Program-made: the position numbers and the translations under genes
Assembly (NCBI GenBank): GCA_951406725.2
Contig: OX597821.1
Location: 100,254,001 to 100,318,000, forward strand
Direction: 5' to 3'
DNA: 64,000 bases
Source: Octopus vulgaris
Lineage: Eukaryota
Notes under the pieces: generated by a model
What the model was told of the DNA's origin: nothing
What the model saw: the letters and a program-made list of their open reading frames with translations, nothing else
Database searches by the model: none
In this document: positions 6,031-62,399 of the stretch, piece after piece
Layout of the letters: every line of letters begins with the position of its first letter
Numbering within the stretch: the first letter of the stretch is position 1

Positions 6031-6244
6031 AGCTTACGCAGTATTTAAACAAGAGCCACTAATAGTTTCATGCCGTGGGAACAGGATAATTCGGCAGATT
6101 TGTATAATTTAACTTCCACGGCTTGAAACTAATAGTAGTGCTTACTTCAATACTGTACATATTAAATATTTATATCTTTTTTGTTAATCATAACTACAAT
6201 GGAGCAGTAAAGTATGTGTGTAGGCGTGTGTGTGCATGTGTGTG

Positions 6245-6612
6245 TATATCAAGTAACTCTTAAATTTAAAATTTTATATACCAGTGTAAAATTACTTCAG
6301 GTAATGATGTATTTTTATATGGGCAGTTCATCTCAGTTATCTAAAAGAATTTCTAATATTTACGCTACATTTGGGGATAGGAATAAATGTTACAGTACAG
6401 GGCTTAGTACATTAATTTGGTATCTAAAAGATCACAATAAACAATTTAATTTAGATTGGTTGATTCTCTCAAATTCGATACCTTATGATAAAGGCAAGGA
6501 ATTCTGTCTTCTCTGTAATTCTGAACTATTTTTTATTCTTTTTTCTAAAAACCCCCTTGTCAACACGGTTATAGAGCGTGCATGCCGATGTTTGGCAGAA
6601 ACACATCTTTAG
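6245..6612 (+). pseudogene. GIY-YIG endonuclease C-terminal fragment of a Penelope-like retroelement
   Basis: VYQ..YMGSS...KRISN...F...STGLS..IW.LKD....LDW.IL....PY....CLLC..E..FI.....LVN....C; 5'-truncated at a (TG) tract; the putative 3' UTR runs to (TA)n at about 7165. Confidence 0.8.
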
Positions 6613-7222
6613 TTCATATAAGTGATATCTATCAATATATATATTTTAAACATTAATTTTCTTCTTACATTTCACATCCACTAGATATATCTTTTTCCAA
6701 GACTTTAGGGTTTTATTTAATTTACATATCGTTATATATATTTGGTCTTTCTTTCCTTTACCCCTCCTCTTTCTATAGGCTACCTTTGACGTTATATCCT
6801 CTAACGTGTTTTTAAAAAAACTTAATAGCGTTCAGTTAAGCACTATACATATCCATCATATTCTGTCAAAATGTCTTATTGATGAGTTTCAAGAGAAGAT
6901 TATATTGTTTTACACCACTTTATTCCTTTAGAATAATACCAGCGACATCTTCGGCGCAGGTGTCGGAAGTAAAAGAATTTGAAAAACACCTGCGTTTAAC
7001 TCTATTTATTTATATATATTATACAAAATATTTCACGTAAACTCGGAGTTTCTACCTTTAGAAACAAGGAGTTACATAAGTTTTACTTGTGTGATTTTTG
7101 CTACCCTGGTAACTATGTATCTATTTTTTCCCTGTTAATTTTTAACAAGGGGAAAAATACATCTATATATATATATATATAAGAAAAAAGGTTTGAAAAT
7201 GCAATTTAAACGATGTTTATTT

Positions 7223-7263
7223 ACTTAACCGGTTTCACTCTTTGGTAAAAGATTGTCAAAAGT
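7223..7263 (-). ncRNA. Minimal hammerhead-like motif, U3-A8 variant (left arm)
   Basis: Reverse complement ACTT TTGACAA TCTTT-tacc-AAAGA GT GAA ACCGGT T AAGT. Confidence 0.55.
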
Positions 7264-7276
7264 TACATTTAAGGAA

Positions 7277-7505
7277 ACATTGAATAATATGGGTTCAAAA
7301 AAGTTTTTTACATAATTGTCACATTGAATATTATGCATTCAAAAAAGTTTTTTACATAATTGTCACATTGGATATTATGGGTTCAAAAAAAGTTTTTTAC
7401 ATAATTATCACATTGAATATTATGCATTCAAAAAAGTTTTTTACATAATTGTCACATTGGATATTATGAATTCAAAAATGTTTTTTTATACATAATTGTC
7501 ACATT
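7277..7505 (+). repeat. Minisatellite, 5 x about 44 bp (mirrored at 8406-8634)
   Basis: Unit acattgaatattatgcattcaaaaaagttttttacataattgtc with alternating ggg/gca variants. Confidence 0.9.
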
Positions 7506-8645
7506 ATTTGGGAAAATTTGGCAGAAAAGGATAAAACAAATATATTATTGGGAATTGGTTGCGTTAATTATTGGTTGTCGCAAATTGTCACATTACATGT
7601 ATATATATACAATCTTTGGTATATATATACAGCGTTTTGACAGCAAAAATTAAAATGGATTTTTTGTACATCTCAGAATATTTTAAGTATGTTTTTATCT
7701 GACCTGTCAGTATTAGCAGAAAGGCTGAACTGAGAGAACAGAAGAAGTAGCCAATGTGGTGTATACTTCCCCTTTATGCATGAATGATTTTGGGGTTATC
7801 AGGAGGTTAGTATGCGGGTGTGAATAGATGTGTCCGTGCCTGCTGGTCAGACAGCGTCTGTTTGTCACACACATATATATACACACAAACACACACACAC
7901 ACAACAACACACACACACACACACACACATGTGTTCTGTGTGTGTGTGTGTTGTTTGTATGTGGTGTGTGTCTGTATACTATGTGTGTGTGTGTGTGTGT
8001 GTGTTGTTGTGTGTGTGTGTGTTTGTGTGTATATATATGTGTGTGACAAACAGACGCTGTCTGACCAGCAGGCACGGACACATCTATTCACACCCGCATA
8101 CTAACCTCCTGATAACCCCAAAATCATTCATGCATAAAGGGGAAGTATACACCACATTGGCTACTTCTTCTGTTCTCTCAGTTCAGCCTTTCTGCTAATA
8201 CTGACAGGTCAGTAAAAACATACTTAAAATATTCTGAGATGTACAAAAAATCCATTTTAATTTTTGCTGTCAAAACGCTGTATATATATACCAAAGATTG
8301 TATATATATACATGTAATGTGACAATTTGCGACAACCAATAATTAACGCAACCAATTCCCAATAATATATTTGTTTTATCCTTTTCTGCCAAATTTTCCC
8401 AAATAATGTGACAATTATGTATAAAAAAACATTTTTGAATTCATAATATCCAATGTGACAATTATGTAAAAAACTTTTTTGAATGCATAATATTCAATGT
8501 GACAATTATGTAAAAAACTTTTTTGAACCCATAATATCCAATGTGACAATTATGTAAAAAACTTTTTTGAATGCATAATATTCAATGTGACAATTATGTA
8601 AAAAACTTTTTTGAACCCATATTATTCAATGTTTCCTTAAATGTA

Positions 8646-8686
8646 ACTTTTGACAATCTTTTACCAAAGAGTGAAACCGGTTAAGT
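8646..8686 (+). ncRNA. Minimal hammerhead-like motif, U3-A8 variant (right arm)
   Basis: ACTT TTGACAA TCTTT-tacc-AAAGA GT GAA ACCGGT T AAGT; palindromic stem III ACCGGT. Confidence 0.55.
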
Positions 8687-8763
8687 AAATAAACATCGTT
8701 TAAATTGCATTTTCAAACCTTTTTTCTTATATAATCCCACTCGTGCGATACCCCACAACTCAA

Positions 8764-17047: not shown

Positions 17048-18270
17048 AAGAAAGCAATTGATAGATAAACAAACGTATGGGTGCAATTGTGTATGTTAAG
17101 CTTTTATACGGTTTATTCAACAAGTTATCCTGGTCTGTAGTTGGAGAGATTTTAAGGATCGATTCTCTTAGAAAATCCGAACGTTTCTACTTACTGGTGA
17201 TTGTGAAGGCTGAAGTACTGGCACAATTGATAGAGATTTGGACGAGATGCATTCACGATAACTAGTTTGGCATCTCCGGCTTGTGAATTGAAATCCCGCT
17301 ATTCATTCCGACAATGATCAATAACCTAACGATTTCTTGTATTGCACCAGTGTCATTTGCAATGGAAGGTCTGAGTCGATTGAATCGACTCAAGTTTTTA
17401 ATATGTAGTTATTTATTTTATCGATCTTAGAGAAGAGAAAATCAAAGCCGTGTACAGAGAGTGTAAAAAGACGAAATACTGTTATGCCCCTTTGTGCAGC
17501 GCTCTAACTTGCGTAGCACTGAACTACGATATGCAAAGCACGGCCGTCACTCGCAAACGAATATGGCATGATAGCATGTGCTGATATTTCCTTTAACTGT
17601 TTTAGAGGGATATGTGATGGTGGGCAAATATAGAAGACTTCTGAGACACTCTTCACTGTTTATCAAGCGGAACGTCAAGCATGTGACAGCTGAAGGAGAG
17701 AGGACTTCATCAGCACTAATCTGCTACTCCTTTTCACTTGGGTACACCAGATCAACATAAAATGAAATGTCTTGTTCAAGGGAGGGACGTGCCACCTGTT
17801 CCAGCAATCGAATCCACATTTTTATGATTGTGAACGCAACGCTCTAACCACTTGACCACACAGCTTTAAATATACAGAAAGTCAAGTATAAAATATCTTG
17901 TACCTGATCATTGGCAATTGGTCCTTAACTCTATTCACTGGGTACCAGCGAAAGAAAGATCTTGACGAAGATGCGATAGAGATTCAAAGGGAAAATACCC
18001 TCGAGCAGTTCCCTTAATCACAGGGTGATTTGAATTCAACACCGCAGGCTATCGGTGTTATCATAAGATGAGCGACGTTTACTTGAAGCATTGTGCTAAA
18101 GAACTAAAACAAACTAGTAAAAAGGGTCAGCTTTTCATAATGCGAAAAAAAGAAACAGACTTTAATAACCTTTAACTTTCAGGCTTGAATACTGCAAGGC
18201 ATTTTACCCAACATGCTATTGACTTTAGCAGATCCCCCACATGCTCATCTCATTCGGTGACTCCTGCATA

Positions 18271-19572: not shown

Positions 19573-19715
19573 TACAACACCATGTTTTAACAGTTTTTTT
19601 TGTTCAAAACAAAAGCTTTCAGATCCATCATCAAAAGTAAATAATCCGTATCTTTGTGCCTGGAATATATAAAGCTCATATTTCTTTTTACGCAGTGTAA
19701 GAAACACTTTATCTT

Positions 19716-22969: not shown

Positions 22970-23643
22970 ACTGAAGTATGTCAACTCGACAGAAAAATAA
23001 GCTTGACAATGATCTTAAGGCAGATACAGAACGACTTTATCTGCCAAGGAAGTGGACTTTTATCAATGCAATAACATTGTTTTGTCTTGGTATGAAAAAG
23101 ACTGGGTTAAAACTTGTCTCAAAACAGCAAATATTCAGTGCTCAAAACAGGCACAGATATTGCTTGTCAGTTGTTTGACCTTAACCAGTTGACCGTGCCA
23201 AAACTCCCTTAGTGGCTGACGATACCTCTGTGCATCTCTGATCACGAGACAAAGACCCATCAATGGCTAGTGAAACAGGGGAGCATCATAGCCATGAAAC
23301 TGTTGAGAGTAGGATTCTTTGGGGTTTGAATAATTCACCTACTGAGAAACATGAAAGAGCTGTACAATATATTCACTGGGGTGGATTTCTTTCAACATCC
23401 TTAAACAACCCTTATTGCCACATCTCAACCTTTTGAGCGGGATGTGCTACTCAACCTGAAGAAAATTCTAACTGGGCCCCACCTGCAAGGTCATGTGCTG
23501 TTTATCTTGATATGAGATCACCATGTCGCGCACATATGGTTGTGATGCATGTGCCTGGTGTACCCTTATCAGACGGGTAGTCATGATGGGTATATTGGGC
23601 TTCGTATATTTTACCCCAGTGTCACTTTGATGGCATGCACTGC

Positions 23644-23644
<1 letters not shown>
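22970..23644 (+). mobile_element. Dong/R4-derived mosaic inserted in (AAT)n
   Basis: EVCQLDRKI and KADTERLYLPR RT motifs followed by the (AAT)n-tailed retroposon; (AAT)n on both sides. Confidence 0.7.
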
Positions 23645-23710
<66 letters not shown>

Positions 23711-23713
<3 letters not shown>

Positions 23714-24097
23714 GATCAGTAAATATAAAGACTTGTTAATAGAAATTGAAAAAATGTGGCATCTCAAGGCGACTACAATAACAGTGATTGTAGGATCTCT
23801 AGGAATGATAAAAAAAGGTACTGAAACCTATTTGAAAATGATACCAGGCTTACCATCCCTACAGGAAGTGCAAAAAATCGTGTTAACTGGAACGGCTCAT
23901 GTACTGAGAAGAGCATTATCGCTGTGAAAACAACATCCATTCCTGAATTTATTTATTTATTAATTTTTTAAATACATATTTTACCTGTGAATTTGCGTGT
24001 GTAATCTGGGAATGCATACAATGAGCTTCTCTGCCCTAGGTGTACGGAAAACACTCGGCGAGAAACGGAAGAAAATTTGAAGAAAGAAGGAAAAAAC
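23711..24097 (+). mobile_element. 5'-truncated Dong/R4 LINE (RLE C-terminus plus 3' UTR) in (AAT)n
   Basis: KISKYKDLLIEIEKMW...VIVGSLG...QEVQKIVLTGTAHVLRRAL*; (AAT)n on both flanks, the known Dong target. Confidence 0.88.
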
Positions 24098-33548: not shown

Positions 33549-33640
33549 TCCCTTACAGCTGTTTCAAGTAATACTCAGTAAATATTAAGTAAATATTAAA
33601 TTTATATCTATTTGGCCTGAGCATAATATCTTCAGAAGGA
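33549..33640 (-). ncRNA. Type-I hammerhead ribozyme in a pLTR-like element (33339-33660)
   Basis: Reverse complement TCCTT CTGAAGA..ATGCTCAG...CTGAGTAT..GAA ACAGCTGT A AGGGA; the element ends cacaacctctaatcgaat(TA)n. Confidence 0.7.
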
Positions 33641-43699: not shown

Positions 43700-45440
43700 T
43701 AAATTCCAAGAGAGTTAGAGGTTGTGAATCCAACCAACTAAGGGATAATATCTATCCAATACACTGCTGGTAGAATACTCAATTATTAATACACAAGTGT
43801 TTTTTATTGCATGGCAATTACACTGTCGAGTGTAATAAATAGGCGAGGGTAAATAGTTATGTTACCCTTAATTCATACAGCAATAAGAAAATGGAGGGGA
43901 TCAATAGGTGGTATTCATCAAATCTTAGACATTATATTATGTCAATTTATAAATTTTTAGAAAGACAATTATAACAATATATATGCATATATAACACATT
44001 ATACTTTACATATATCATCATATATATAAAATATATTACTGATATTTTTATATTTTATATATTATATATGTAATGTATAATATGTTATATATGCGAAACA
44101 CAAGCCCTGGGTGACGAAGAAGATTAAACGAGAACTTCGACTCAGAGATATTGCTTGGGCTGAATTCAAAAATCTGGATTCGACTGCAGCTTTTGAGGTG
44201 TACAAAACTCAACGAAACCGAGCCGTGAAAATTGAAAAGGAAGAACGCTTCAGTTATAAATACAAAATCGCGGCAAATGCCAGTAGCAATCCAAAAACCT
44301 TCTTTGCCCATGTCCAACGGAATTCCCGCTTGAACAACCACATTGCAACGTTGGTAGACTCAACAGGCGTATCGATAAGGACCCTTATCAACAGAGTCAA
44401 TTATTTGCCGAGGCTTTTTCAACTATTTTCAAACAAGATGATGGTCGTGAACCCCCTCCATTTGATAGATCAGTACCTCCAATGCTTCGATTGGTCATCA
44501 CGCGGGACCAAGTCAAACGTGTTATTCAAGGCCTCGATGTCAACAAGGGTCACGGCCCTGACGGCATACACCCACGGGTTATCAAAGCGTTGGCTCCGGT
44601 CATCTGCGAGCCCTTAACACGTCTATTCAATATGTCATTGGCGACGGGTGTTATACCTGCGGACTGGAGAACAGCGATAATCTGCCCAATTTTCAAGAAA
44701 GGGAGCCGCGAAGACCCGCTTAACTACCGACCGGTTTCCCTTACATCAATAATCAGCAAGATGTTCGAAACCATCCTTAAGAAAAGTATGATGCTCCACC
44801 TCCAAAACACAGCCTCTATCTCTGATTCCCAAGCCTCTTCTCCTTATCTCCTCAAAGATATACAGCATCTCGAAAGAGTCCAGAAGCTGGCTACCCGCAT
44901 GGTTCATGGTCTCAAAAATTTGTCCTATGAAGAAAGGCTGAGGACGCTCGACATTTATTCTCTAGAAAACGCCGCCGCCGTGGTGATCTCATTCTCGCCC
45001 ACAACATCATAAGCGGAAAGTGTAACCTCTCGAAAGAGCTGTTCTTCACTCCTGATCCAGAGCGTCGGCTGCGGGGTCATTCCGAAAAGCTCTACCTGCG
45101 ACGATTTCATCCCAATCGAAGGAGAGGAGCTTTCTCCGTCCGGGTTGCGGATCCGTGGAACAAGCTGCCAGACGAGATGGTGAAGATGCCGACTACCGCT
45201 TTGTTCAAAGCCTCCCTGGACCTCAAGTGGCCTGAACTCTTTACATGAACACCACCCTGTACTTAACTCCATGTCCCCCTACATGGCCTTGCTATTTGCT
45301 TTTGAGCCAAATTAACTAACTAACTAACTAACTAACTAACATATTGTTAAAATTGTCTTTTTAAAAAACAGATAGACATAATATAATGTCTAAAACTTGA
45401 TGAATTCCACCTATTGATCCCCTTATTTTTCTTATTGCTA
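43700..45440. mobile_element. pLTR-like fold-back (arms 43880-43980 and 45341-45440) with a CR1 LINE in the loop
   Basis: About 100-bp inverted repeat; the left end shares ttagaggttgtg with the 33339 element. Confidence 0.65.
44098..45340 (+). mobile_element. CR1 LINE, 5'-truncated with the RT core deleted
   Basis: PWVTK, GPDGIHPRV, PIFKKG..DP.NYRPVSLTS, LERVQKLATR, SYEERL, RLRGH and FSVRV..WNKLP motifs; (CTAA)n tail. Confidence 0.93.
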
Positions 45441-48408: not shown

Positions 48409-48477
<69 letters not shown>

Positions 48478-48479
<2 letters not shown>

Positions 48480-49167
48480 TTAATAATAAAGGGTAAAATT
48501 AATTAATTAATTAATCAATTAATTAATAATTAATAATTCTACCAAGTAGTTCGGTATGTTAAAAGAATCATTATCGGTAAAACTTAAACAAAAATTCTTA
48601 TAATTATGAGTATAATTATAATTAGTGTTCAGCAAAGAAATTTGCTTTACCACTTTATTATTAATGATGATATAATTCTCTCTCTAATAGTAAACTACAG
48701 TTTTGTTTCTGTAGAATTTTACATGATATTACACGTGGGTGGGTGAGGGAAAATACGAGATCTCATTCGTCTGTTTGAATTCAGAGGTACTGGTCATTGG
48801 ATATAATTTGTCTGGTGTCGCTGGAATCAGATAAGGTATGTTAATTTTTTTCTTTTTTTACAGTGCTCTCAATTTTAAAGTCTTGAAGTACTGTGCTGAA
48901 GAGCGAGAATGATAGAATGGAAATGTGGCTTTTGCATTTTTCATATCTATCTAACTCCGAAACGCGTTCACAGTTAATGTAAACCGAGTGAATTCGTTAC
49001 TTTTTTTCTCTTTACCTGCGTGGGTTGTTGAGTATTGTCGTCTGGGAGATTTTCTTATGGTAGAGAAATAACGAGTTTTGGATGCTATTTCTAAATTTCG
49101 GTAGGTGGTGAAGCAAATTTCTTTGCTGAACCCTAATTATAATTATACTTATAATTATAAGAATTTT

Positions 49168-49170
<3 letters not shown>
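48478..49170 (+). mobile_element. ORF-less HHR element with an inverted terminal copy, in (TA)n
   Basis: 48591-48652 is inverted relative to 49105-49168; 48478-48498 is inverted relative to 48646-48666. Confidence 0.78.
48890..48974 (+). ncRNA. Type-I hammerhead ribozyme with canonical core
   Basis: ACTGTG CTGAAGA [long stem II G..GAG/GATAGA...TCTATC/CTCC] GAA ACGCGT T CACAGT. Confidence 0.82.
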
Positions 49171-49237
<67 letters not shown>

Positions 49238-49323: not shown

Positions 49324-50156
49324 CAGGGTACTGTGAATAAACTGTCGTCTAAATTGCGCAAACATGAAAATAACACTAACATCTCATTTTAGCAGATATA
49401 TTTACCAAAATTACACTAAAATATCTTGAAATACTAAAGAGTAAATTTATTCAATGAAATTGCCATTGGCTTCAACCACAGCCTCCAGACAACTTTAAAT
49501 TCTCCCGCAACTCTTGTGGGCGGTGTACTTGCTTAAGATGGTGAATACTGTCATAATCCTTGCCCTCAGTTCATCTTCTGTGTTACAAGGAGTTCTGTTG
49601 GTCTCACGCTCAATTGCACCCACACATAATAATCATGGAGGTTGCACTGTGAGGAGTTAGGTGGCCAGATGTTAGGGATGATGTGTCGCAGAAATTGTCC
49701 GACAGCCATGACTGGTTCCTTCTGCTTGTGTGGCATGGTGAAAGAGTCCTGTTGGCAGATATAGGTTCTTCCAGCAGCCCATCGTAGCACTACCTGCCCC
49801 AAGCACTTGATGTAGGCCTCCGTGTTGAGTCTGAGGTCGTGTGGGAAGATGAATGGCTGCATAACGTCGCCGTCACTAGTAATCACTCCAAACACCATAA
49901 TGCTGAGTGGATGTTTGATTTTTATCACATTTGGTACGTGTTCACATTGGAACATGTTTGTATTGGAGCTTCTGGCGCGAATGCCAAGCAGGACAGAATG
50001 TCGTTTCTAAATTTCTGGCAGAATTAACTGAGTCATATTGTTGTTTTTCTCACAGACTGTGCCCAACAGACGATACGATACTGTGTAGTCGACAAAAAAT
50101 TAAAAAAACAATGCGCTTGCGCGAAACTAAAATTATAAAATGGCCTCAATGTACCC
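49324..50156 (-). mobile_element. Degenerate maT/DD37D-like Tc1/mariner transposon
   Basis: KHPLSIMVFGVITSDG...QQDS...WPPNS..CN..DYYVW; TA|cagggt terminus. Confidence 0.82.
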
Positions 50157-57377: not shown

Positions 57378-59500
57378 GTCATTATTCAATCTATTCAAAG
57401 ATTTCTTGCCAATAGAGAAAGAACCGGTTTCTAACCTAGATCCAAGGCTCCTTCGTTGGAATTTCAACGTCAACAACAGGGTATTTTTGTTTTTATGTAT
57501 GTATGTATGTATGTATGTATGTATGTATGTATGTATGTATGTATGTATGTATTATGTATGTATGTATGATGTATGTATGTATGCATGCATGTATGTATGT
57601 GTGTATGTACGTGCAGATTTGTACGGTTTTTGTATGTATTCTCATGCATATAGCTGCATATCTAGACATGCTCATATATATTTAAATGATAAACTTCTGG
57701 AAAGTTTAACAGATTGTTACAGTTCCAGTGATGGATTGGATGTGTAGTCTTCGAATCTAACTTTCTCCTTTTTGGTTTTGAGAAGCCTAATTTCTCAAGA
57801 TTGGTATTTAGGGAGTGTTTTACAAATCGAAGAGCTCTGATAATTACAGGTTTAAATCTGAAATTATAATCTGGATAGACTAACTGCAGATTTCTCAATA
57901 ATTCAGCATAGGTGTTCTCTTTTTCACTGATCTTCAGCTTTATGTTAACATCATTGTATCAGGTCTGTTGTGCTTACATTTTATTGAGGTCGTCACTAGG
58001 ACATTCCACCAGTATTCCTTTTTATTAGGACATTCCACTAGTATTCCTTTTTATTATGAGTAGCTATGTCTTCTACCATATTGTGGGTTCTTATTTCTTT
58101 GTTCATGGGTTTATCCTTCTGACGGATTTCATTTTAGAGTGTCCTAGCTACAACATCATGTCTCATCAGTAGATAATACCGTGATGATATTTTCAGACAA
58201 CGGCTTATGATGTGGATGATATTTTCAGTGTAAACTCTACAAAGTCTGCATCGGTTGTCACATTTTACTGCTTTCCCTACATCTCTATACCTTTTGTGCA
58301 TCAGGTACTTGGTTGATATTTCTTGTTCCTGGATTGCAAACACATACCCTTCAAAGTGGGAGGTAGTAATCCGGCTGTGATAAACTGCTTTGATGATCGA
58401 TGTTACTATCATCTCGGAGCTTTGTACTAACAAAGCCATGCATAATCTTCTGTTCATATAGGCTCCTCCTTTCATCTGATGATACTTTGCAGTAGAGTCG
58501 TGCAAATTCTTTGGCCAGGTATTCTAGGTTATCAGACAAAGTGTGTTGCTCAAGGAGCTGCCTTCCAATTCTTATGACGTTATCAGCCTCATTTATGCAA
58601 ACTTTGTTAAGGGATGCACTTTGACACTTGGTGGTTAAAAGATGTTGTCAAAAGGATATGATACGACATTCAAAGGCATTTTGGATCGATTTTAAGCCTA
58701 TGCCGCCAAATTTTCATTTTAAGTAGAGGCGGTCTACGTCATATTTTATGTGTAAATTATATGTGCTTGTTAGTGTTTTTCAGGTTTTCACATTATTGGC
58801 TCGGATCTCATCAAGCGTTCAATCACGCAGCCCAAATCTTGGTATGAGTACTGGCACTGCAAAGACATTGTGGTTCACTGTTTTTATTGAATTACAGAGA
58901 ATTCTAAGGTCTAATTTTTTATTCGTCTGTAATATGCTTTAGTGAAACGTGTTTTGTTACAGGTAGCATTATGAGATATATTTTCATCCACCCCTAGATA
59001 TATGTAACATTCCTCATCAGATACAAGGGAAACAGTCAAATCATTGATTGAGATGTTATTAGTCTGGTTCATAGTTTTCCCGCTTTTCACAACCACATAA
59101 CAACATGTATACTGACCAAACTCTAACCCTACATCCTTTCAGAATGTAACTAGGACAAGGCTCTTTTCCATCTCATGCATATTCTTTGCATAAAGTTTTA
59201 CGTTATCCACAAAGAAACAGTGTGTAATTTTGGTATTTCTGTTTCCCCGTGAACCAGTGAGATATCCTTCAGACTTCCTTAGCATGAATGACAAGGGGTT
59301 TACAGAAATTATAAACAATATCACAAAGAGGCTCTTGGAGTATGCTTTTGCGATACTGTATTCTATTGGTGATAATACAGTCACTCTTTGTGCTTGATTT
59401 CATGATGGTGGCCCATGATGAAGTCAGGTCAGCTATGGCTTCGACTATTCTCACTGGAACTTTAGCAGGTTGAAGGGCTTCTATTATCCATGAGTGGAGA
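57378..59500 (-). mobile_element. Degenerate Dong/R4-clade LINE in (ATGT)n
   Basis: THCFFVDNVKLYAK (RT), YIYLGV, SHFEGYVFAIQEQ, CRLC...HIISRC...Y..RHDVVA (CCHC) and FKPVII.AL motifs; many frameshifts. Confidence 0.88.
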
Positions 59501-60130
59501 ACATGTATGTATGTATGTATGTATGTATGTATGTATGTATGTATGTATGTATGTATGTATGTATGTATGTATGTGTGTGTATGTGTGAGCGTGTATGTGT
59601 GTGTGTTCTGTTTCTCTTTTTAATTTTAAAGTAAATTTTGAAGGGCACATACTTAATGGCAAGTTGTGAAGGAAATCATCTTGTTTTAACCGTCATCTTT
59701 TAAATCTTAAGAAGATCATTCAGATTTTTATAATCCCAGATATCGCGTACATTAAGTATTTGTGTTCTCTCCCCAAGATACAAATTTCAACCATACTTCG
59801 TTCCAGATGGGTTGGTATGTATCCTGTTGGGTACAAGATCTGCAAATTCTTAATGAATGGTCCATACATAGCTTCTTTCTCTTACAGGTTTTCTAATCAC
59901 ATAGGTGTCCAGAAGGCAGATAATTTCCACGTACGTTTTCTACTGGCAAAATTGTTAGCAAACCGGGCAAAATGCTTAGCGGCTATTCGGCCGACTTACG
60001 TCTGAGCACAAATTCCACCGAGGTGGAATTTAACTTTAATTCTTTCGGGAAAAAGACAAGGTACAAGTTGAACGCTTCGATCGATGTGATCCTGCCAAAT
60101 TTCAGGCCTCGTGCCTACAGTAAAAAAGAT

Positions 60131-60991: not shown

Positions 60992-62399
60992 GTCAATTCC
61001 ATTATTATCAACATAAGCCCTCTACCTTCTAAGCATCAGTCTCACCCTCTCTCTATCTCGCCCTGTCTCCTACGAAATATATGTATACACACATGCACAT
61101 ACTCATACACACAGATACACATACACACAAATACATGTACACAAGCACATTCATACGCACACATATACACACGCATGCACGCACATACACTCATTCACAC
61201 AATACATGCACACATATAATATATTTATGCACGCAATTCCATGCACGTTGAGTCCCTTTGTGTTCCTAGCAACATCTTTCGGCTCAGCGAATTTCCCTCA
61301 AAAACTTTGATGGAATTTTTTATACTTACATCGTATTAGATTCATAATATATCACCTGTCACGTGCACACACACACAGAGGCACACATGAACGTATGCAT
61401 ATATGTATACACACTTGTATGTATGTATGTATATTCATTGATTTTGCTTCACTTCCGAGCAAATATATGCTTTATTTCATTTCATTTCCATTCAGTAACT
61501 TAGTCACGTCAACTGTGTTCATTATAATACAAGATATTTTTCATCACAGCGTGGAATAACAAAAATAATCACACAAGCCACATGATAAAAAGTTGGTCAC
61601 TTTATTTACGTATATTTTTCAATTAATAGCAATTCCAAAAGCTTCTTTCGAAAATCTTCCATTAAATGTAATTCAAAATATCTTCATAACTCCTATTTCT
61701 TCATTAAATATGTATGGCATGCATCGTTTATAAGTATTATATACGTTTTACGCTCGCTCGCGCACGCACAAATGTATGTATACCTAACTAGGTAGCCATA
61801 TATATATAGATAATGCTTGCGTTTATATATAAACATGTTTATGTAACACACGTATACATAGGCACACACTTATACCACGTGTGTGTATATATATGTATAT
61901 ATCTATAAATATCTTATTCATATATATATATACATCATATGACATATATGCATATTTATATGTATATCTGTGTATCTATCTATATGTATATGTGTGTATA
62001 TATGTATATATGTATGTGTGTGTGTGTATATATTTATGTATATGTATGTATGCATGCATGTATGTATGTATGTATGCATGTATGTATGTATGCATGCATG
62101 TATGCATGTATGTATGTATGTATGTATGTATGTATGTATGCATGCATGCATGCATGTATGTATGTATGTATGTATGAATCTTAGCACCTTCCTGAAGGAT
62201 TATATGAAAGGAAAGATTTTCAAAAGCAGATATTACCGACATAGCTCTTCTTTCAGGAACACTGATAAATGAAATGCAACAAACTCGCTGATGCAGAGCT
62301 TGGAATGAAGTAAGACACACATTTCCATCGCACGATATTCTGAAGCACATAAAAAAATTAGTGTGGTAGTTGCTGAGTATATTCGTTACAATTTTTGTT

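Follow-up and report, generated by a model that had tools for sequence, protein, structure and literature searches.

Head-to-head insertion of an ORF-less hammerhead ribozyme unit in Octopus vulgaris, probably mobilised in trans by a Penelope-like element

A 693-bp insertion (48478–49170) made up of a head-to-head pair of related copies lies within a (TA)n tract of the Octopus vulgaris genome. The surrounding 64-kb window (the whole stretch of DNA that was analysed, in whose numbering all positions are given) is rich in microsatellites, ranges from 31 to 44% GC and carries fragments of several transposons. The features of the insertion and its target are the following:

48413–48477: (TA)n tract on the left side of the target
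48478–48653, minus strand: inverted copy, 176 nt, in the order X-Y-z; its 3' end abuts the left (TA)n tract
48478–48497, minus strand: z, the tail-like 3'-terminal segment of the inverted copy, repeating the first bases of the forward copy
48498–48589, minus strand: Y, 92 nt, 18% GC, linking X to z and including an (AATT)n run
48590–48653, minus strand: X in the inverted arm, 61/64 identity to 49105–49168
48646–48653: head-to-head junction, 8 bases common to both copies (microhomology)
48646–49168, plus strand: forward copy, 523 nt, z-Z-hammerhead-X, without an ORF
48732–48753, plus strand: 5' arm of a predicted long-range 21-bp helix
48846–48863, plus strand: acceptor-like pyrimidine tract (14/15 pyrimidines) and CAG, 26 nt 5' of stem I
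48890–48974, plus strand: type I hammerhead ribozyme motif (strict descriptor), predicted cleavage between 48968 and 48969
48982–48998, plus strand: stretch predicted to pair with 48961–48975, covering the cleavage site
49002–49022, plus strand: 3' arm of the predicted long-range 21-bp helix
49105–49168, plus strand: X as the 3'-terminal part of the forward copy, containing short hairpins, 23% GC
49171–49198: (TA)n tract on the right side of the target

Other mobile-element fragments are spread over the window. A 5'-truncated remnant of a Penelope-like element (PLE), read as Neptune type, occupies 6241–7165 (plus strand). Its GIY-YIG C-terminus reaches a stop at 6612; a pyrimidine tract with AG follows at 6778, and a sequence resembling the first core of a hammerhead, in degenerate form, lies near 6880. 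A donor-like site, hairpins at the terminus and a closing TA run complete the remnant; its layout resembles that of the 615-nt unit described below, to which it is not homologous. Inserted in this TA run is a fold-back element (7176–8733) whose near-perfect arms measure ~780 nt; it contains sub-repeats, has a short centre rich in TG/CA and resembles a MITE or fold-back transposon. A second short PLE endonuclease-like coding scrap follows a microsatellite at 62204–62284 (plus strand). Broken LINE-like endonuclease/RT frames (44081–45248, plus strand) and a Tc1/mariner-type transposase-like fragment (49566–50006, minus strand) were recognised by eye, with no Pfam match to either. A dispersed, SINE-like 239-nt repeat is found at 19710, 51124, 52267 and 60415 (80–88% identity to the reference copy), and fragments of a non-LTR retrotransposon C-terminus at 57662–59619 (minus strand; weak zf-RVT match at 58137–58523, E 0.008) and 23631–23927 (plus strand). 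The GC-richer segment 25700–26146, open on both strands, is possibly an exon or a transposon fragment.

The two copies of the insertion repeat each other's ends. The start of the inverted copy (48653–48590) and the end of the forward copy (49105–49168) are identical at 61 of 64 nt, and the end of the inverted copy (48497–48471) agrees with the start of the forward copy (48646–48674) in 27 of 29 alignment columns, a match that continues into the TA flank. The score of this z overlap was reached in 0 of 20,000 shuffles, or in 7 of 20,000 when the 8 junction bases, which possibly derive from the other repeat, were left out, and its 14-mer core occurs in the window just at these two sites. Y is present in the inverted copy only and elsewhere absent from the window. 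The order in the template is thus X-Y-z-Z-hammerhead-X with a period of 615 nt (523 + 92), at 31% GC, which bears out both the apparent circular permutation and the identity of forward start and inverted end proposed in a first-pass annotation of this DNA, and replaces its estimate of ~630 nt for the unit. The head-to-head junction is not a palindrome, and an inverted 5'-truncated copy beside a direct one is what a PLE-mobilised insertion displays, as is a microsatellite or AT-rich target, here (TA)n on both sides. No target-site duplication is readable, both flanks being (TA)n. The z segment is 20–27 nt long and tail-like, as against 30–40 nt for a PLE tail, and the two 3' ends of the insertion lie ~115 nt apart. 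The insert continues intact across the hammerhead cut site, which is not an insert boundary. Neither blastn nor nhmmer found further copies of the 693-bp insertion within the window, and the tandem genomic arrays suggested earlier as a check were likewise absent from it, the locus being a single copy with one hammerhead. As the comparison covered the window, a single copy in it does not demonstrate a passenger family.

The ribozyme motif has the CUGANGA, GAAA and NUH elements and the three helices, with helix I open, that define a type I hammerhead. Stem I pairs 48890–48895 with 48969–48974 (6 Watson-Crick bp); the core CUGAAGA (48896–48902) leads into the G10.1–C11.1 pair (48903/48958) and a bulged C (48904), and the 56-nt stem II comprises 4 bp, a 3×3 internal loop and then ~13–17 more bp. 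The GAAA element (48959–48962) is followed by a palindromic CGCG loop (48963–48966) and U16.1–U17 (48967–48968), which puts the predicted cut between 48968 and 48969 at a GUU site. The 6-bp stem I, CUGAAGA, long stem II and GUU site named in the first-pass annotation are all present, and its claim that this is the best hammerhead of the window holds: 48890–48974 was the sole strict match on both strands, and among 60 Markov-simulated windows none contained a hammerhead with stem I of at least 6 bp and one did at a threshold of at least 5 bp. The term "canonical" suits helix I and the core; it does not suit helix III, which consists of 1 bp and a palindromic tetraloop, or loop 2, which is replaced by the extension. 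What departs from the usual hammerhead is the long stem II. By itself it was equalled by 4 of 500 shuffles; the whole 96-nt motif is unremarkable in stability (z −1.2, 22/200 shuffles). As regards a possible loop 1–loop 2 contact, stem II has an internal loop after its first 4 bp, and the constrained fold formed no distal stem I extension.

Rfam hammerhead models gave no match to the motif, either at gathering score (0 matches) or among the 19 matches at E≤10, a miss for which the long stem II is the likely reason. C/D snoRNA-like Rfam matches at 48656–48728 fell far under gathering scores. The exact hammerhead pattern had 0 matches in bacterial and archaeal genomes. Phage records yielded eight matches of 49 nt in Clostridium phage integrase genes, AT-rich and covering 9% of the query, which were rejected as chance. 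Elsewhere in the window, candidates at 17690 (the sole addition made by a one-mismatch scan) and 21652 look like chance, and another candidate site was noted at 33565. A type III reading of the motif by way of the upstream hairpin was discarded, as stem III would by eye be 1 bp only.

The GUU site and the bulged C may, we presume, reduce activity. The ACGCGU palindrome has a computed self-duplex energy of −7.5 kcal/mol, and helix III as modelled appears too weak for efficient cleavage of a monomer; the ribozyme would most likely cut only as a double hammerhead, with the palindrome exchanged between units of a multimeric transcript. Motifs with a small palindromic helix III are described as cleaving poorly alone and functioning as dimers (PMC4209133), as is likewise reported in PMC7229834. 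Against activity as a dimer, only one of nine predicted Xenopus dimers is reported to have cleaved in vitro (10.64898/2026.07.22.740005).

RNA folding predictions give the circularised unit a free energy of −159.7 kcal/mol (z −5.7, 0/60 shuffles) with 67% of bases paired, so that the predicted circle is highly self-paired, as in non-LTR retrozymes; the stability comes mainly from the forward copy. A 291-nt core scored z −4.3 in the sense and −2.4 in the antisense direction, the minimum among 42 control strand-tiles being −2.2 (21 of 43 tile positions were kept; microsatellites, the element and the fold-back were left out). The predicted 21-bp helix encloses the ribozyme domain, with G·U pairs at 7 of its 21 positions; the flank duplex reached −45.3 kcal/mol (0/1000 shuffles; antisense −18.7), in windows picked after the fold had been seen. 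In these models the RNA-level structure is strand-biased. The region of the 6.3-kb PLE remnant that resembles a pseudo-LTR (pLTR) also folds above shuffles (z −2.8), and structure is therefore no guide as to whether a passenger family or an ordinary pLTR is present. Pairing of Y with the rest of the unit was considered as a means of closing the circle and rejected, as 15 of 60 shuffles were equally good. Since Y pairs non-specifically, folding offers no support for circularity as such.

Within the unit, 48859–48867 is predicted to pair with 48887–48895, which contains the 5' strand of stem I, and in all longer contexts stem I was displaced by this upstream hairpin together with the downstream complementary stretch at 48982–48998. 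The ribozyme is thus predicted to be sequestered in the monomer. A block as strong was obtained in 7 of 300 shuffles upstream and 30 of 300 downstream, and one to ≤0.02 in 98 and 70 of 300; these folds point weakly to a deliberate blocking of the ribozyme. A splicing-gated ribozyme was rejected: with candidate introns removed (donors 48743, 48787 and 48836), the stem I probability stays ≤0.04. Acceptor-like sites with a pyrimidine tract comparable to that at 48846–48863 number 13 in the window. Other splice-like features were seen at the unit boundary, where the X-Y sequence (18–23% GC) is intron-like and followed by acceptor-like AGs at 48690–48714 and an ATG at 48723, which may, on sequence grounds, denote a 5'-UTR intron across the boundary. 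A donor-like GT at 49101 lies 4 nt outside the point where the inverted copy stops, a coincidence that is not significant given that the 523 nt contain 9 donor-like sites.

The unit has no apparent coding capacity. Read round its 615 nt, it has no sense ATG ORF above 24 aa and no stop-free stretch above 44 aa, which agrees with the earlier description of the unit as ORF-less, and no ORF with the RT and GIY-YIG endonuclease of an autonomous EN+ PLE was found in it. A Pfam scan of 18 ORFs, eight of them from the element, gave nothing at the cut-off. For a more sensitive search for PLE protein remnants, the GIY-YIG-like fragment at 6301–6591 was used as a seed, yielding 541 relatives and then 204 longer ones; RT-linker-GIY-YIG proteins were among the matches listed for it and are read as Neptune type from their motif order. 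After an unrelated protein (P0115) had been dropped, the main profile was built from 111 full-length Neptune-like proteins (at least 600 aa) from the matches listed. Against the element its best score was −0.0 bits (E 0.06), while the same profile recovered the 6.3-kb remnant (E 8e-16) and the scrap at 62213. Pieces of the remnant were recovered in 6 of 6 cases at 40 aa, 6 of 7 at 30 aa and 2 of 8 at 15 aa, in a check made with sequence from the endonuclease end, itself a relative of the profile seed; the profile would overlook PLE remnants shorter than ~20 aa or belonging to a distant PLE clade. Profiles of the N- and C-terminal parts scored the element at background, 37 and 82 of 90 control tiles scoring better, and two additional protein searches returned nothing. 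A three-residue likeness (NYS) to Neptune N-termini near 48693, a tblastn match on the antisense strand that crosses stops (E 0.024) and two tblastn-type matches at E 0.01–0.02, where controls gave 2–86 matches each, were rejected.

The data presented above have led us to a model in which the locus is one insertion of an ORF-less hammerhead element of ~615 nt, with the size and layout of a pLTR, that was mobilised in trans by a PLE RT/GIY-YIG endonuclease. We regard this as the probable reading, with room for serious doubt. The sequence itself shows the hammerhead motif, the permuted order X-Y-z-Z-X, two copies placed head to head, a (TA)n target and no coding capacity. A source locus with tandem or partly tandem units would give rise to an RNA exceeding one unit, for which a re-ligated circle would be equally serviceable, and the PLE protein would nick both strands of the (TA)n tract. 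One nick would prime cDNA synthesis ~200 nt downstream of the uncleaved hammerhead, copying X, the ribozyme and Z; the TATA end at the other would anneal at TGATATA just past z in the same RNA, copying z, Y and X. Joining of the two cDNA 3' ends through the shared bases 48646–48653 would then leave an inverted 5' piece and small overlaps. Internal priming of this kind predicts that the z match continues into the TA flank, and the observed continuation supports a TATA-ended primer.

Because the 64-nt X is copied twice and the order is X-Y-z-Z-X, the template must have been either longer than one unit or a circle, and the position of the cut site inside the insert is at odds with a linear monomer cut by the hammerhead. 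A linear tandem transcript and a circle are both compatible with these constraints. The first-pass annotation had taken the running of the unit's end into its start as expected of a tandem or circular template, as in retrozymes; the need for a template longer than the unit stands, and the feature is specific neither to retrozymes nor to circles, since PLEs are generally tandem-permuted and twin priming gives the same overlap. Indeed, the 3' tail of PLEs in general is described as the start of the body (PMC2377424, PMC11167929), and in D. virilis a 34-bp repeat is reported both where the ORF starts and at the 3' terminus (PMC2377424). In L1 twin priming on one linear RNA, the inverted piece ends where the forward one begins, often with a short duplication (PMC12350158). 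Its application to a PLE substrate is our extension by analogy, and a search for literature linking twin priming to PLEs found none. The twin-priming geometry of L1 is reportedly due to Ostertag and Kazazian in 2001.

PLE insertions are described in PMC8557442, PMC3846280 and PMC8969392 as partly tandem, accompanied by an adjoining 5'-truncated copy in inverted orientation, extended on one side by a 30–40-nt tail and targeted to microsatellites, and one example in PMC3846280 has an inverted pLTR overlapping the direct one by 15 bp. Purified Poseidon protein is reported to cut and extend both strands of AT-rich DNA, to start internally downstream of the hammerhead and to use unprocessed RNA, with no need for hammerhead cleavage (PMC11167929). 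Counting against trans-mobilisation is the distance of ~115 nt between the two 3' ends, which exceeds the 30–40 nt of a PLE tail. In a comparison of the unit with the 3' region of the in-window Neptune remnant (6613–7165, the only candidate compared), 179 of 200 shuffles scored as well. With no homology to that region, the PLE link rests on anatomy, not sequence. The remnant at 6241–7165 marks the Neptune type as a possible helper in this genome.

The main rival, named as an ordinary PLE deletion in the first-pass annotation, holds that the locus is a one-off dead autonomous PLE: a full-length X-Y-z-ORF-Z-X RNA was inserted through two nicks and lost its ORF locally by a template jump or later deletion, for instance at the unpaired linker 48715–48731, which has an ATG right after an acceptor-like AG. 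Such an origin would account equally for the overlaps and for the inversion, copies with internal deletions between inverted pLTRs are known (PMC3846280), and there is a single copy in the window. The distance of ~195 nt from z to the acceptor-like site is also comparable with the ~166 nt between stop and acceptor in the in-window remnant. Against this, an ORF of ~2.1 kb must vanish tracelessly, with no coding remnant found on either side of the possible deletion, and the repeats differ at only 3 of 64 sites. The small divergence of the X copies makes the insertion look young and leaves little time for later deletion, and a young-looking copy with no coding trace leads us to prefer an ORF-less template over local loss of the ORF, which we hold possible and on balance unlikely. 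We consider it improbable that the template was a closed 615-nt hammerhead circle, copied by the PLE protein from both nicks simultaneously.

Two priming events might instead have left an ordinary pair of 5'-truncated pLTR ends, one inverted and one direct, the z overlap being chance or a repair patch taken from the forward copy next to it and no 615-nt unit existing. Inverted and direct truncated pLTRs are the usual PLE by-product (PMC8557442), z is short and AT-rich with the Y-z join inside an (AATT)n run, and Y does not pair specifically with the rest; the z overlap, however, is attained by only 0–7 of 20,000 shuffles, has a 14-mer core unique to its two sites and is placed exactly at both termini, which makes this account very improbable. 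A DNA-level rearrangement of an existing element (replication template switch or assembly fold-back), in which the RNA template is irrelevant to the inversion, could draw on the two inverted-repeat pairs in AT-rich, hairpin-prone DNA between microsatellites and is nonetheless extremely improbable, as the arms are 95% identical with a non-palindromic junction, which a read fold-back would not give, as 3' ends of the element lie outermost on both sides, in TA tracts, and as a prior tandem X-Y-z-Z-X would be needed all the same.

Taken as a PLE-mobilised ORF-less element, the insertion works like a non-LTR retrozyme or a non-autonomous PLE. It shares with non-LTR retrozymes the lack of an ORF, the type I hammerhead, a unit of a few hundred nt with GC below 50% (615 nt, 31%) and strongly self-paired predicted RNA, and with axolotl HHR_Amex1 a helix III of 1 bp with a palindromic tetraloop (PMC7229834). 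It differs in having no array at the locus, a stem II extended to 56 nt and a circle that is predicted only. Tandem hammerhead units and circular RNA are the defining traits of retrozymes (PMC7229834, 10.64898/2026.07.22.740005); with one hammerhead and no array in the window, in place of at least two tandem units, the element is not filed as a retrozyme here. The unit could be a dispersed retrozyme monomer, a form that Li, Clavereau and Pollet 2026 describe and for which they propose a pLTR origin; it falls inside the size range of their families (51–972 bp; 10.64898/2026.07.22.740005) and is longer than the 170–400 nt given as typical by Cervera and de la Peña 2020 (PMC7229834). A block of the ribozyme by complementary sequence, as predicted here, is described as typical of plant retrozymes and viroids and not of most animal retrozymes (PMC7229834).

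The pLTRs of EN+ PLEs (Penelope/Poseidon, Neptune) have in common with the unit a palindromic small helix III and a helix II bulge (Cervera and de la Peña 2014, PMC4209133), an acceptor-like site just 5' of helix I, where the D. virilis intron end maps, and 3' ends downstream of the hammerhead. They also share with it insertion into a microsatellite, an extension on one side only and an adjoining truncated copy that is inverted. The 6-bp helix I and the 1–2-bp palindromic helix III in the metazoan type I description of PMC4209133 agree with the motif; helix I is 2–5 bp in the metazoan PLE variants given there, as against 6 bp here, and stem II is far longer here. The unit further differs from EN+ PLE pLTRs in lacking an RT/GIY-YIG ORF, in ends that differ by ~115 nt, in its non-palindromic inverted junction and in showing no sequence link to a named PLE family (one in-window candidate compared). 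Chlamydomonas MRC1 and Chlamys-N4 are similar as protein-less, pLTR-type or head-to-tail microsatellite insertions that use a PLE partner, and different in mostly lacking canonical hammerheads, in their (C)n or (CA)n targets and in that the partner is known (PMC8557442, PMC9977147). L1 twin-priming insertions likewise have an inverted 5' piece that abuts the forward start in the template, a short duplication and microhomology (PMC12350158); the octopus insertion differs from them in having no poly(A) tail and no readable target-site duplication and in a template that repeats X terminally.

That PLE machinery carries animal retrozymes has been argued from co-occurrence and pLTR similarity (PMC7229834, 10.64898/2026.07.22.740005), and their mobilisation mechanism is stated to remain open (10.64898/2026.07.22.740005). 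Octopus vulgaris has recently active Penelope families according to PMC13282606, in the main text of which the word "ribozyme" is absent. A literature search on octopus hammerheads and PLEs, limited to main publications, found no description of this element; the family may already be covered, perhaps unlabelled, by retrozyme or pLTR sequences in supplements or in Repbase/Dfam. The element is a known kind of passenger with, at this locus, an unusually readable insertion scar, and as a single copy its significance is modest. Were the template a circle, the overlaps of 64 nt and ~25 nt would represent each cDNA running into the other's start, the scar would be direct evidence in the genome that a PLE had retrotransposed an animal retrozyme from a circular template, and the family would combine an extended stem II with a viroid-like self-blocked ribozyme. 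The overlap geometry itself suggests a single-RNA, two-nick origin for the inverted ends of PLEs, and an ORF-less hammerhead unit bearing a PLE insertion signature would give locus-level support for trans-mobilisation.
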